Both the position numbers and the translations under genes were made by a program. Of a DNA stretch of 23,836 nt, positions 6,634 to 19,301 are shown piece by piece (positions within the stretch are counted from its first letter, which is position 1; every line of letters begins with the position of its first letter). Source of the stretch: a virus (taxonomy: Duplodnaviria > Heunggongvirae > Uroviricota > Caudoviricetes); IMG/VR virus record IMGVR_UViG_2648501149_000019; one strand, 5' to 3'. The notes below the pieces were generated by a model. That model was not told the DNA's origin, searched no databases, and saw only the letters and a list, made by a program, of their open reading frames with translations.

Positions 6634-6897
6634 ATGAAACATAAAGCCATAGAGAAAGCTATTGAGATTCTTGGAAGTCAGCAAGCCTTAGCCAAGCGAT
6701 GCGGAAAGGCCCAGTCAACAGTCTGCGATTGGTTGAACTGCAAGAACAAGATTTCACCAGAATTTGTGCCGTTATTGGTTGCAGCTGTCGACGGAAAGAT
6801 CCAAGCGTATGAATTTCGTCCAGACCTACCAGAGCTTTTTCCACATTCAGGCTTAGCGCACACAGAGGATGACAAGCCCACAGGAGACCAACAATGA
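6634..6897 (+). CDS. cro: Cro-like small DNA-binding regulator
   Basis: Track ORF 6583..6897, trimmed to the ATG at 6634 (MKHKAIEKAIEILGSQQALAKRCGKAQSTVCDWL...) with SD 'AGGAG' upstream. HTH-like segment. Divergent from cI. Confidence 0.65.
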   Translation: MKHKAIEKAIEILGSQQALAKRCGKAQSTVCDWLNCKNKISPEFVPLLVAAVDGKIQAYEFRPDLPELFPHSGLAHTEDDKPTGDQQ

Positions 6898-7601
6898 ACA
6901 CCGCAATTTTTAACGGCAAAGCATCCATGACCAGCGTTGAGATCGCAGAGCTGGTGGGTAGCCGCCATGACAAAGTGAAACAATCCATTGAGCGCCTTGC
7001 TGAACGAAGGATTATTCAGCTTCCCCCAATGGGGATTTCTGAAAATATCAATGGGTTAGGTTTAACTCAAAAAAGTAAGCATTATCTTTTCGAAGGTGAA
7101 CGAGGCAAACGCGACAGCATCATTGTCGTCGCACAGCTTTGTCCCGAATTCACAGCCCGCCTGGTAGATCGCTGGCGCGAACTGGAAGAACAGATCCGTA
7201 AGCCAATGAGCGAAATCGAAATGGTTGCCGCGATGGCTCTTGAAGCTGTTCGTCAGCAGAAACGGATCACTCAGGTGGAAGAAAAAGTCAGCCACGTTGC
7301 CGAAACAGTTGAGCAAATCAAAAAGGGCAACATTCGTGAGGGCTATGCCGGATATCGCCAACTGAAAGCAAAAACCGGTTTGTCAGATGATAAATGCCGC
7401 AATCTGGTGAACGCTTATCAAATTCCTACAGACACCCATGAGTTCATGACGCCGGACGGATTGTTGTCACGTCGCGCAATTGTTGCTGTGGAACCGTTTA
7501 TGGCTGCTTTTTATCGGATTATGGAGGAAGCAGAACCGCGAGGGACTCGCTGGTATCACCCGAAAATGGGGTTATTTCAGGTTATTGGTTGGCAGTGGTG
7601 A
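6894..7601 (+). CDS. Rha-family phage regulatory protein
   Basis: 235-aa ORF. N-terminal pattern 'MTSVEIAELVGSRHDKVKQSIERL' matches the Rha signature as I recall it. Start overlaps the cro stop. Confidence 0.7.
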   Translation: MNTAIFNGKASMTSVEIAELVGSRHDKVKQSIERLAERRIIQLPPMGISENINGLGLTQKSKHYLFEGERGKRDSIIVVAQLCPEFTARLVDRWRELEEQIRKPMSEIEMVAAMALEAVRQQKRITQVEEKVSHVAETVEQIKKGNIREGYAGYRQLKAKTGLSDDKCRNLVNAYQIPTDTHEFMTPDGLLSRRAIVAVEPFMAAFYRIMEEAEPRGTRWYHPKMGLFQVIGWQW

Positions 7602-16563: not shown

Positions 16564-16777
16564 TTTTTTTATTTACTGTTTATTAAAAACACTACTGCAT
16601 GGTGAATCCCCCTGTGCGGAGGGGCGACTGGTGTAGGTAGCATTTATTATGTTATAGGCAAGCCGACGCGGGTTCAGTGACACCGGCTGAATTCACCGGG
16701 AGGCACCCGGCACCATGCGCTGCAACAAAAGTGTTATTTCTGTTTTTCTCAAACTATCATCGTTATCCCTTTATTTC

Positions 16778-16806
16778 CGGCTGCGCATGGCGCGGCCTTT
16801 TTTTTA
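16778..16806 (+). terminator. Strong intrinsic terminator
   Basis: GGCTGCGC-ATG-GCGCGGCC hairpin (8 bp, one G-U pair) followed by 8 T. Confidence 0.6.
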
Positions 16807-17214: not shown

Positions 17215-17430
17215 ATGTACCAGATGGAAAAAATCACAACAGGTGTGTCATACACCACGTCAGCGGTGGGGACGGGATACTGGCTACTGCAGTTGCTGGA
17301 CAAAGTCTCCCCATCCCAGTGGGTGGCAATAGGTGTATTGGGTAGCCTGGTGTTTGGCCTGCTGACGTATCTGACAAACCTTTATTTCAAGATTAAAGAA
17401 GACAAGCGTAAGGCTGCACGGGGAGAGTAA
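17215..17430 (+). CDS. S: Class II pinholin, phage-21 S-type, with dual-start motif
   Basis: From memory, strong similarity to phage 21 S ('[40 protein letters not shown]'). Two TMDs. Starts MYQMEK, with Met1 and Met4 matching the S21 dual-start layout. SD 'GGAG' 8 nt upstream of ATG 17215. Confidence 0.85.
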
Positions 17431-17434
17431 TTCA

Positions 17435-17986
17435 ATGACTCAAAACTATGAACTGATTGTGAAAGGGATCCGCAATTTTGAGAATAAAGTTACGGTAACT
17501 TTAGCGTTACGGGACAAAAAACGCTTTGACGGTGAAATTTTTGACCTGGACATCTCGCTGGACCGTGTTGAAGGTGCCGCGCTGGAGTTTTATGAGGCAG
17601 CAGCCAGAAGGAGCATCAGACAGGTCTTCCTGGATGTTGCCGCCGGGTTATGTGAAGGGGGTGAGCAGTCGCCGGAAAAGCGCCCCATAATTTTAGAGGC
17701 GCAGAATGTGTGGATAACCTACAAAGGAAAGCTACCGGGAAGAATTACTGGTTCTCTGAAGACGCCACCGACGGCATTGCGGTCAGAAAAAGATGATATT
17801 GAATCGCCCATTGAAAAACTGGAGGGCAGAGTCGCTGATCTGAATAAAAAATTGTCGGTGCTGATCCCTTCTGAAGATGAAAAAAAACGCCGCGATGAGC
17901 AGTTTGCGGCGTTTTACGATTATTGCATTGAGGTTACTCGCAGGAATTTTGTGAAGATTTTTGAGGAGGGTAAATCTCTTCAGTAA
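17435..17986 (+). CDS. Hypothetical soluble protein (183 aa) inserted between holin and endolysin
   Basis: ATG 4 nt after the holin stop with SD 'GGGAGAG' 7 nt upstream. No TM segments. Charged C-terminal half. No recognisable domain. Confidence 0.65.
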   Translation: MTQNYELIVKGIRNFENKVTVTLALRDKKRFDGEIFDLDISLDRVEGAALEFYEAAARRSIRQVFLDVAAGLCEGGEQSPEKRPIILEAQNVWITYKGKLPGRITGSLKTPPTALRSEKDDIESPIEKLEGRVADLNKKLSVLIPSEDEKKRRDEQFAAFYDYCIEVTRRNFVKIFEEGKSLQ

Positions 17987-18194
17987 GCTTAATGGCGGAC
18001 GCTGCAATTAATTCTGGAAGGTCCGCAAGGTCATCTGTCAGTGGGAATGATGAAAAATCGGCGGCAGTTCTGTTAAGACGCGCTTTAACTAATTCCTTTT
18101 CTTTCTCCGGCAACAAGTTGATTAGAGCTACGACTGCTTGCCTGAGTGCGATTAAATCAGCAAAAGTTTGTTTTGGTAGATTTGTGTAATCCAT
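17934..18194 (-). CDS. Hypothetical acidic protein (86 aa), convergent with and overlapping the 3' end of the 183-aa gene
   Basis: Track ORF 17934..18200 (GTG). First ATG at 18194 (MDYTNLPKQ...). Weak SD. A GC palindrome lies upstream (18228-18252). Confidence 0.4.
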   Translation of the reverse strand: MDYTNLPKQTFADLIALRQAVVALINLLPEKEKELVKARLNRTAADFSSFPLTDDLADLPELIAASAIKLTEEIYPPQKSSQNSCE

Positions 18195-18306
18195 AGTCAC
18201 TCTGTGTTTATCAGATTGACATCCTCCTCCCGCCAGTGCCCATCACTGGCGAGGTAAGATTTAACATATCCGGGGATTTGAAGCCGATAAATCCTGATAA
18301 ATATCC

Positions 18307-18840
18307 ATGAGCGCAAAAATCAAATATGGCCTGTCGGCTGCCGTTCTGGCACTGATTGCCGTCGGTGCGCCTGCGCCTGACATTCTTGACCAGTTTCTGA
18401 ATGAAAAGGAAGGTAACCATACCACGGCATACCGCGATGGTTCCGGCATCTGGACCATCTGTCGGGGGGCCACGATGGTGGATGGAAAACCCGTTTTTCC
18501 CGGTATGAAACTGTCGAAGGAAAAATGCGACCAGGTTAACGCTATTGAACGTGATAAGGCGCTGGCATGGGTGGAGCGCAATATTAAAGTACCACTGACC
18601 GAATCACAGAAAGCGGGTATAGCGTCATTTTGTCCCTATAACATTGGCCCCGGTAAGTGTTTCCCGTCGACGTTTTATAAGCGGCTGAATGCCGGTGATC
18701 GTAAGGGTGCATGCGAGGCGATTCGCTGGTGGATAAAAGATGGTGGGCGCGATTGCCGCATACGTTCAAATAACTGCTATGGACAGGTTATTCGTCGTGA
18801 CCAGGAAAGCGCATTAGCCTGTTGGGGGATAGCTCAGTGA
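18307..18840 (+). CDS. R: SAR endolysin (phage lysozyme, T4-lysozyme-like/GH24, R21-type)
   Basis: 177-aa ORF. N-terminal signal-anchor-release segment '[18 protein letters not shown]'. Catalytic Glu-Asp-Thr pattern in '[22 protein letters not shown]'. Follows a pinholin. Confidence 0.9.
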
Positions 18841-19301
18841 GCAGAGTCGCTGCGATTATTTATGCTCTGGTTATCTGCATAATCGTCTGCCTGTCGTGGG
18901 CGGTCAATCATTACCGTGATAACGCCATCGCCTACAAAGAACAGCGTGATAAAAAAGTCAGTGAGCTGAAGCAGGCGACCGCCACCATTACTGACATGCA
19001 GCGGCGCCAGCGCGATGTTGCTGCACTGGATGAAAAATACTCAAGGGAGTTAGCTGATGCAAAAGCTGAAAATGATGCTCTGCGTGATGATATTGCCGCT
19101 GGTCGTCGTCGGTTGCGCATCAGAGCAGTCTGTCAGGCCGGACGTGAAGCCACCGCCGCCCCCGGCGTGGGTAATGCAGCCGCCCCCCGACTGGCAGACA
19201 CCGCTGAACGGGATTATTTCACTCTCAGAGAGCGGCTGATAATAATGCAAAAACAACTGGAAGGGGCACAGCTATACATTCGTGAGCAATGCCTCAGATA
19301 A
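18837..19301 (+). CDS. Rz: Rz i-spanin
   Basis: GTG start overlapping the endolysin stop (GTGA). N-terminal TM '[17 protein letters not shown]', coiled-coil periplasmic domain. From memory, strong similarity to E. coli prophage Rz proteins. Confidence 0.85.
19057..19239 (+). CDS. Rz1: Rz1 o-spanin (outer-membrane lipoprotein) embedded in Rz in the +1 frame
   Basis: 60-aa ORF wholly inside Rz. Lipoprotein signal with lipobox 'VVVGC'. Pro-rich mature region (PPPPPAW...PPPDW). SD 'GGGAG' 7 nt upstream. Confidence 0.8.

Follow-up and report, generated by a model that had tools for sequence, protein, structure and literature searches.

The virus record IMGVR_UViG_2648501149_000019 (Duplodnaviria; Heunggongvirae; Uroviricota; Caudoviricetes) of IMG/VR comprises 23,836 nucleotides (nt), the whole stretch of DNA analysed here and referred to below as the window, and its lysis cassette carries two overlapping genes between the holin and the endolysin. 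The cassette begins on the plus strand with an S21-type class II holin, or pinholin, at 17215–17430 (PF04971, 112 bits, E 1e-32; phrog_20, phrog_9876) that has dual starts at M1 (17215) and M4 (17224). After a gap of 876 base pairs (bp) it continues with the signal-arrest-release (SAR) endolysin R at 18307–18840 (PF00959; phrog_7) and the spanin genes Rz (18822–19301) and Rz1 (19057–19239), all on the plus strand. A preliminary description of this DNA, made from its letters, had placed two open reading frames (ORFs) and a GC palindrome in the gap, and all three are present. The first ORF, ydfR, occupies 17435–17986 on the plus strand and encodes 183 amino acids (aa); the second, on the minus strand, spans 17934–18194 and encodes 86 aa when read from its ATG, or 88 aa from an in-frame GTG at 18200 (phrog_2572). 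The two genes converge, and the overlap of about 50 nt described earlier measures 53 nt (17934–17986). The plus-strand gene is indeed positioned to be translated with the lysis genes. What lies 4 nt past the holin stop is its start codon, however, and not the Shine-Dalgarno (SD) sequence reported there, which reads GGAG (17422–17425) and falls within the last holin codons.

The plus-strand gene is not the inserted novelty that it had been taken for. Residues 1–112 of its product, encoded by 17435–17770 on the plus strand and made up of the DUF1327 N-domain and a conserved linker, match PF07041 with 142.3 bits (cut-off 25), and the entire protein matches phrog_2091 over its full length (E 7e-110). 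DNA matching the N-domain is found in 3894 of 5426 complete Escherichia coli genomes (72%), including the Qin prophage of K-12, and in the window the domain is encoded in a lambdoid lysis cassette, with the class II (S21-type) holin on one side and the lysozyme on the other. Lambdoid prophages of E. coli commonly have ydfR as a third gene in lysis cassettes of the S21 type. The earlier premise that holin and endolysin are normally adjacent is true for about 45% of close holin relatives: among 74 IMG/VR loci anchored on close relatives of the window holin, S and R are adjacent in 33, and something lies between them, usually ydfR, in the other 41. YdfR proteins have a common N-terminal part and different tails, with length classes of 103, 114/116, 176, 183, 211, 268, 296, and 329 aa. 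AlphaFold predicts three beta strands and a helix for the N-domain (aa 1–74), and the linker that follows (aa 70–122) combines low model confidence with a conserved sequence.

Among known systems, the closest is YdfR of E. coli K-12 (P76160) with its family (DUF1327; PHROGs 2091, 406, and 1085), to which the N-terminal 112 residues of the window protein are homologous; identity to K-12 YdfR is ~69% over the shared part. The K-12 gene, like that in the window, directly follows an S21-type holin and precedes a lysozyme gene, the order in Qin being essQ (annotated essD), ydfR, and rrrQ. K-12 YdfR has only 103 aa and diverges past about residue 77, whereas the window protein extends to 183 aa with a helical tail; likewise, the K-12 ydfR stop overlaps the rrrQ start, whereas ydfR in the window ends 320 nt before R, with the minus-strand gene lying over its 3′ end. 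Residues 1–72 of K-12 YdfR bind the catalytic N-terminal half of RNase E in two-hybrid and co-purification experiments (PMC13232886; 2026). The K-12 protein also co-purifies with RNA, and its over-expression altered few transcripts (PMC13232886). The interacting region is the part conserved in the window protein; the protein shown to bind is that of K-12 (PMC13232886). A literature search returned no functional information on YdfR or the 86-aa protein beyond this one study of K-12 YdfR (PMC13232886). The linker holds a second terminator-like hairpin on the minus strand (17677–17703: GCGCCUC, 9-nt loop, GGGGCGC, UUUU), inside the codons for EKRPIILEAQ. Its sequence is conserved although AlphaFold predicts disorder (predicted local distance difference test score, pLDDT, 27–40). 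In the cassettes with a 90-aa minus-strand gene described below, this hairpin lies ~50 nt past the stop of that gene, so a constraint at the nucleotide level might account for the conservation of the linker.

What distinguishes the window from its nearest relatives is a block of ~470 bp, from ~17771 to ~18243, that is missing from otherwise ~95%-identical cassettes. In phages vB_EcoS-640R1 and vB_EcoS-689R5, both flanks are ~95% identical to the window, ydfR encodes 116 aa, and R starts 63 nt later; flanks ~95% identical to the window characterise the empty-site variants, L094 and L095. Within the block lie the last 71 codons of ydfR, the 86-aa gene in its entirety together with its leader, and, of the palindrome, the left arm and the loop. 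The GC content of the block is 0.436 (17771–18243), compared with 0.49 for the holin and the ydfR N-domain and 0.52–0.53 for R and Rz. A search of the same 5426 complete genomes with positions 17830–18230 found block DNA in 353 of them (~6%), 294 of these matching over at least 80% of the query, and always on the chromosome. The ydfR tail and the 86-aa gene are 90–100% identical among copies while identity spans 75–100% in the holin and 72–100% in the ydfR N-domain, and this high identity despite variable neighbours indicates that the block has been shuffled by recombination. Thus, the preliminary description of a two-gene insertion stands for the minus-strand gene, which lies within the variable block, but of ydfR only the 71-residue tail belongs to it. 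Automatic annotation of the interval is inconsistent: in the closest complete genome (L001, E. coli Z1323HEC0477, 98.3% identical) PGAP gives a ydfR pseudogene and a minus-strand gene of 51 aa, and several phage records, such as that of 2H10, lack the minus-strand gene.

The 86-aa gene is one of several occupants of this slot. We sampled 120 IMG/VR loci, chosen by an exact match to the 27-mer upstream of R, and found the slot occupied in ~70 and empty in 27. The 86-aa gene is present in ~15 loci, and the most frequent cargo is a 90-aa minus-strand gene (phrog_2411; 37 loci) that overlaps a 114-aa ydfR by 35 nt. A gene of 79, 87, or 91 aa overlaps a 176-aa ydfR by 68 nt in 8 loci, a gene of 104 aa (phrog_1853; orf6 of Stx2 phage 86) lies in 6 loci with no overlap, and a 233-aa minus-strand ORF fills the slot in 2. 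In 3 further loci ydfR encodes 329 aa and the minus-strand gene is absent, and 2 loci hold disrupted copies: one (L135) has a ydfR truncated to 85 aa and an interval longer by ~780 nt, and in the other (L199) the 86-aa gene is interrupted by the fusion of a long transposase-like ORF. The slot is therefore shared by at least five alternative cargo genes on the minus strand, all of them oriented against the late operon. The 86-, 90-, 91-, and 104-aa proteins are hydrophilic with isoelectric points (pI) of 4.5–6.2, and homology to the 86-aa family was not detectable for the 90-, 91-, and 104-aa families (hhalign probability <1%). A kinship of cargoes suggested by a similar N-terminal pattern in a MAFFT alignment was rejected on the same measure (hhalign probability <1%). 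From this distribution, the slot between the ydfR N-domain and the block upstream of R is, by sequence comparison, a recombination hotspot. The restriction of cargo to the minus strand is likely due to the danger of the opposite arrangement, as a rightward constitutive promoter would transcribe the SAR endolysin and spanin genes.

Several lines of evidence argue that the minus-strand ORF is a real gene and more than a chance ORF. Its product matches phrog_2572 over the full length (E 6e-52), and an exhaustive search of 1.8 billion representatives recovered homologues of 89–93 aa with 40–55% identity. In alleles this diverged the frame stays open at 86–93 aa, and the ratio of non-synonymous to synonymous substitution rates (dN/dS) is 0.23–0.36 in deep pairs at dS>1 and 0.47 within the Salmonella set. 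The ORF is intact in 80 of 95 IMG/VR loci scored. Both genes are intact in 72 of the 95, and the pair is in this sense a conserved part of the cassette family, a possibility that the preliminary description had raised; what is characterised is the N-domain of K-12 YdfR. A scan of GTDB species representatives found the 86-aa family in E. coli only; alleles at a greater distance were recovered by the exhaustive protein search and in assemblies of metagenomes or of Salmonella. The ribosome-binding region of the gene (18195–18206, minus strand) reads GAGTGACTATG in the window and GAGGTGACTATG in 29 of 30 haplotypes, and most copies have the SD sequence GAGGTGA. The protein, previously described as acidic, is mildly so (pI 4.7, charge −4.5), and AlphaFold predicts that it folds as a three-helix bundle.

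An intrinsic-terminator-like hairpin follows the 86-aa gene on the minus strand at 17880–17915, where it was recognised as an inverted repeat and by fold prediction. It begins 18 nt past the stop codon and reads, on the minus strand, AAAACGCCGC, a 12-nt loop, GCGGCG, and U8, with a 10-bp stem; on the other strand it lies antisense within the ydfR tail codons KKRRDEQFAAFY, and the plus strand also folds and is then followed by UUUU. The hairpin persists in four diverged alleles whose synonymous sites are saturated elsewhere, with compensatory changes of GC to AU and GC to CG even though the amino acids encoded on the plus strand go from RR..AA to HH..VA, and 86% of the hairpin cells are paired compared with 37–61% in slid controls. 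In Salmonella, the synonymous sites of the hairpin codons are nearly frozen, with a proportion of synonymous differences (pS) of 0.024 versus 0.23 in the N-terminal 35 codons. In the 329-aa ydfR, which lacks the 86-aa gene, the hairpin stem is mismatched.

The convergent overlap between the coding regions (17934–17986), in which codon position 3 faces position 2 of the other strand, is the least polymorphic segment, with 2 variable sites in 53. Across cargo and allele types, convergent overlaps of 35, 53, 59, and 68 nt occur, all congruent to 2 modulo 3 and hence in the same relative phase. By reading through the terminator and the 3′ end of the 86-aa gene, ydfR would have gained its 71-aa helical tail, leaving the genes overlapping by 53 nt. 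The preliminary description had proposed mutual antisense interference, which from this arrangement would probably be lopsided: a terminator ~20 nt past the minus-strand stop would end the leftward transcript ~110 nt inside ydfR, and Q-antiterminated late transcripts would cross the whole minus-strand gene and its promoter.

At the other end of the minus-strand gene lies the palindrome CGCCAGTG-CCCAT-CACTGGCG, which had been placed at 18228–18252 and is found at 18231–18251, with 8-bp arms and a 5-nt loop and extendable to ~18227–18254. It has a single match in the window, where 0.04 would be expected by chance, and the minus-strand RNA has a predicted folding energy of −23.4 kcal/mol (z −4.3). 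On the predicted minus-strand mRNA, the stem-loop would be 5′-terminal. A hairpin is found there in all cargo types, and its sequence is a different one in the 90-aa type and in the types represented by loci L012 and L139. Two other roles for the palindrome were rejected: an intrinsic terminator, as neither strand has a U-tract, and a repeated operator, as it occurs only once in the window.

Farther upstream of the 86-aa gene, and overlapping the initiation region of R, is a candidate sigma-70 promoter on the minus strand (18263–18291) that consists of a −35 element TTTATC (18291–18286), a 17-nt spacer, and a −10 element TATGTT (18268–18263), and that implies a transcription start near 18256. 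We aligned nine upstream regions in the cargo sense, from four cargo families and the relocated Salmonella copies described below, and found ATATTTATCAGG.TTTATC to be invariant, followed by a diverged 17-nt spacer and TAT..T, with the −10 element taking the form TAT(G/T)(T/G)T. The empty site has neither the left arm of the palindrome nor the −10 element.

The DNA just upstream of the R start codon (18252–18306) forms a conserved block on the plus strand. A direct repeat, CCGATAAAT/CCTGATAAAT, lies ahead of the R start (18284–18306), is invariant in all cargo types, and is kept in the relocated Salmonella copies. The R start has no SD sequence. In K-12 and in cassettes in which S and R are adjacent, the R ATG overlaps the upstream stop, and there R may be translated by coupling; in the window it would have to initiate unaided. 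An upstream ORF that couples R to upstream translation was rejected, as the frame ending at the ATGA has a GTG or TTG start only in the window variant and not in the other cargo types. The block could possibly be a relic of the 3′ end of a short ydfR, to whose K-12 form it has only ~55–60% similarity.

The tail of YdfR has relatives outside this cassette. It comprises codons 113–183 and the stop (17771–17986, plus strand) and is predicted by AlphaFold to form a helical hairpin of 71 aa with helices at residues 123–143 and 147–182. Its homologue in Salmonella prophages is a separate gene of 73 aa (the family P0143–P0151), the product of which forms nine clusters that are 71–100% identical and all 73 aa long. 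Each diverged allele of the 86-aa gene converges on an ORF with a C terminus that aligns to the window tail, and overlaps this ORF by 59 nt in every case, in the same phase as the 53-nt overlap of the window. In L012 and L139 the pair lies between ydfR and R. In Salmonella enterica prophages the pair (40–55% identical) lies 3′ of the spanin gene and before DUF1441 and terminase, in a host cassette that differs from that of the window and has holin_8, holin_3_7, a GH19 endolysin, and a DUF2514 spanin, and the ATG of the 73-aa gene overlaps the spanin stop. Both the conserved promoter block and a remnant of the region around the R start are present in the relocated unit, which indicates that the stretch from the tail start to the R ATG moved in one piece. 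These comparisons argue that the tail is more than a by-product of read-through.

We consider it probable, with moderate confidence, that the interval is a ydfR gene with a lysogen-expressed moron inserted in its 3′ part at a recombination hotspot, and that late transcription crosses this moron and probably silences it. The proposal of a moron in the preliminary description is borne out for the minus-strand gene by its presence or absence in near-identical cassettes, lower GC content, SD sequence in most copies, terminator-like hairpin, and candidate promoter. The block would be a self-contained leftward unit, with a weak sigma-70-like promoter over the R initiation region, a 5′ stem-loop, an SD sequence, the 86-aa ORF, and a terminator embedded antisense in ydfR, while the late promoter would drive ydfR itself. 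Transcription in the lysogen would run leftward through the 86-aa gene alone and end at the hairpin. After induction, Q-antiterminated late transcription would pass the terminator from the other side, occlude the cargo promoter, and yield RNA antisense to the 86-aa mRNA, so that the cargo would be off while YdfR with its tail and R are made. Our guess is that the 86-aa protein is a factor that benefits the lysogen, for example by exclusion of or defence against other phages; the effect on lysis timing or competing phages suggested previously is a matter of pure inference.

Several observations weigh against this account. The candidate promoter matches the consensus at 7 of 12 positions and fell below the threshold of a consensus scan, which did not report it, and its activity is for this reason inferred. 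The SD sequence in the window is GAGTGA, a 1-nt deletion from GAGGTGA that is shared only with L014 and L015, and in the subgroup with a 176-aa ydfR and its tail the cargo ATG is changed to ACG; some copies may therefore be weakly expressed or losing expression. Shallow polymorphism among 30 near-identical haplotypes is distributed 2/5/6 over codon positions 1/2/3, with no third-position bias and too few sites to be informative. The covariation in the terminator-like hairpin comes from single sequences, with 50 of 500 shuffles attaining the observed count, and the U-tracts past the hairpin are weak in diverged alleles. Finally, the free-standing 73-aa gene is start-coupled to the spanin gene and has a ratio of non-synonymous to synonymous polymorphism (pN/pS) of 0.38 in its first 35 codons, outside the hairpin and the overlap, neither of which is predicted by a simple one-gene moron.

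In an alternative explanation, the tail, either fused to YdfR or as the free 73-aa protein, and the 86-aa protein cooperate as a two-component module. An effector made in the lysogen could, for example, be neutralised by a partner made late, with convergent transcription ending its synthesis, and the pair could serve as a lysogeny-to-lysis switch or in self-immunity. The pair is co-inherited at dS>1 and was transferred jointly to the holin_8/holin_3_7/GH19/DUF2514 cassette with a 59-nt overlap kept; the tail ORF is under purifying selection where neither hairpin nor overlap constrains it, has kept its length (71 versus 73 aa), and is coupled to the spanin gene; and both products are predicted to be small helical proteins. 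Co-inheritance is partly forced, however, because the terminator and the overlap are physically shared. Furthermore, two types of the tail N-terminal part and two types of the 93-aa protein occur in Salmonella in all four combinations, with no co-variation, the locus L301 keeps the 73-aa gene with its partner half-deleted, and other cargoes have different tails or none, as with the 114-aa YdfR beside the 90-aa gene and the non-overlapping 104-aa gene. On balance we consider cooperation of the two proteins unlikely. A more elaborate version, which we consider quite improbable, would be a portable two-part switch carried on lysis cassettes: the antisense promoter "socket" would drive synthesis of the 86-aa protein in the lysogen, a late partner, fused to the RNase E-binding YdfR in E. 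coli and coupled to the spanin in Salmonella, would neutralise it, and convergent antiterminated transcription would stop its synthesis. If true, such a switch would give a lysogen-only activity (exclusion, defence, or a brake on accidental lysis) with a built-in release at lysis.

Equally doubtful is the explanation that both genes are lysis accessories that tune the timing of lysis or the lysis mRNA, YdfR acting via RNase E and the minus-strand transcript serving as an antisense brake in the control of S and R, with the encoded 86-aa protein secondary. The module lies inside or at the end of a lysis cassette and is coupled to a lysis gene in E. coli and Salmonella alike, the catalytic half of RNase E is a binding partner of the K-12 N-domain, which also co-purifies with RNA (PMC13232886), the minus-strand promoter would overlap the initiation region of an R gene with no SD sequence, and promoter and 5′ hairpin are conserved whatever the cargo ORF. 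Nonetheless, the adjacency of S and R in 33 of 74 cassettes with near-identical holins implies that neither gene is needed for lysis, and the absence of the −10 element from empty sites implies that the antisense promoter travels with the cargo and not with the cassette. The cargo ORFs are also under purifying selection and have good SD sequences, and over-expression of K-12 ydfR changed few transcripts (PMC13232886). That the minus-strand ORF is no gene at all, but a chance or decaying ORF beside a 183-aa sole product, as the damaged SD sequence of the window, the lack of codon-position bias, and the 51-aa annotation next to a pseudogenised ydfR in the 98.3%-identical genome might suggest, is highly improbable given an ORF intact at 86 aa in 80 of 95 loci and kept at 86–93 aa in alleles of 40–55% identity with dN/dS of 0.23–0.47, a full-length phrog_2572 match, a canonical SD sequence in most copies, and a dedicated terminator-like hairpin.

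Database searches gave few leads to function. NCBIfam and PADLOC returned nothing usable for either protein. In Pfam the 86-aa protein had only a sub-threshold match to DUF1823 (E 0.068), which is the source of the "DUF1823" label in one phage record. The defence models of PADLOC-DB v2 gave no significant match, with one weak hit to PDC-M63B (E 0.003, 15 bits) from 1 of 7 family members scanned. The structure-based homology search suggested in the preliminary description produced no significant fold match for either protein, as AlphaFold models of the two (pLDDT 57.6 and 72.1) found nothing at E<0.1 with Foldseek in PDB and BFVD. Rfam detected in the region only a sub-threshold match to GcvB (19.9 bits versus 42), and a match of the tail to PARP1 (E 0.011) was set aside as probably compositional or coiled-coil similarity. 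A toxin-antitoxin pair was rejected, as the genes are convergent, Pfam, NCBIfam, and PADLOC show no significant toxin or antitoxin domain, and both proteins are hydrophilic (grand average of hydropathy −0.16 and −0.81). A membrane-acting lysis regulator, such as the antiholin RI of T4 or the long forms of S, was also rejected, as the sequence and predicted secondary structure of both proteins lack a hydrophobic segment. AcrIIC4, an 88-aa protein of a Haemophilus prophage, resembles the 86-aa protein in size and helical content and is both its best PDB sequence match besides designed repeat proteins (E 0.2, 62 residues) and its top Foldseek match, a lead only. Homology was rejected, as hmmsearch (E 0.2), Foldseek (E 4.1, TM-score 0.34), and hhalign (7.8% over 25 columns) all gave results that were not significant. 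E. coli is not known to have a type II-C Cas9.

The locus can be compared with known arrangements of accessory genes in phages. Morons, a concept of Juhala and Hendrix, are familiar from lambdoid phages, an example being bor of lambda, just after Rz. Like these, the 86-aa gene is an extra gene present in some of a set of similar phages at one site, with promoter- and terminator-like signals of its own, a different GC content, and an orientation against the late operon by the lysis genes. Unlike typical lambdoid morons, it lies within another coding gene, which acquires a new C terminus from the insertion, and the ORFs overlap. The candidate promoter and 5′ hairpin, moreover, are common to at least four cargo genes, like a fixed socket. 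The hotspots of P2 and P4 are phage sites for accessory or defence genes, and the ydfR slot resembles them in offering alternative, unrelated cargo at one locus bounded by conserved genes. Its cargoes are single small soluble proteins (79–233 aa) that matched no PADLOC model. Phage P1 encodes LydB, a soluble antagonist, next to the holin LydA; YdfR is likewise a soluble protein encoded right after a holin gene and translated with it, an analogy of function only. Two features of the locus are mildly unusual, namely a terminator embedded in the codons of another gene and a promoter and hairpin socket common to unrelated cargoes.

The rest of the window is that of a lambdoid prophage. It encodes a CI-like S24 repressor, Rha, DnaC- and DnaB-like replication proteins, and a DNA methylase, with DUF1441 and the large terminase farther downstream. 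At 7771–7959, isrK (57.6 bits) lies beside a C4 antisense RNA (85 bits) and adjoins the Rha-family gene (6894–7601), a group that resembles an antisense-controlled antirepressor module of the P1/P7 type within a lambdoid prophage. A cluster of three tRNA genes at 15567–15810, for Met(cat), Arg(tcg), and Arg(tct), is located 3′ of the DNA methylase gene (14588–15526) and upstream of the late region. The late region opens with an Rfam match to the STnc100 late-leader RNA (16571–16751, 117 bits), and a hairpin with a T8 terminator (16779–16797) lies 3′ of it, ~420 nt upstream of the holin; the two together (16571–16797) resemble the tR′ and the short late-leader transcript found in lambdoid late operons. 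Within the holin gene, a small plus-strand hairpin GGTGTGTCATACACC (17242–17256) spans codons 10–14, just past M1 and M4, and was marked by the scan as terminator-like on the minus strand.

The analysis turns an apparent oddity of one phage record into a defined and testable unit, a hotspot inside the very common prophage gene ydfR that swaps small backward-facing genes behind one shared candidate promoter and stem-loop, beside genes that are lethal when mis-expressed. PHROGs 2572, 2411, and 1853 and the 79/87/91-aa and 233-aa families become candidate small prophage proteins for lysogen phenotypes. The locus also provides a natural case of a terminator-like element within the coding sequence of another gene, and the variant C termini of YdfR could help to dissect the reported interaction with RNase E. 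If the tail and the 86-aa protein act together, they would constitute a new kind of lysogeny-to-lysis switch; otherwise, the 86-aa gene would be an ordinary moron.

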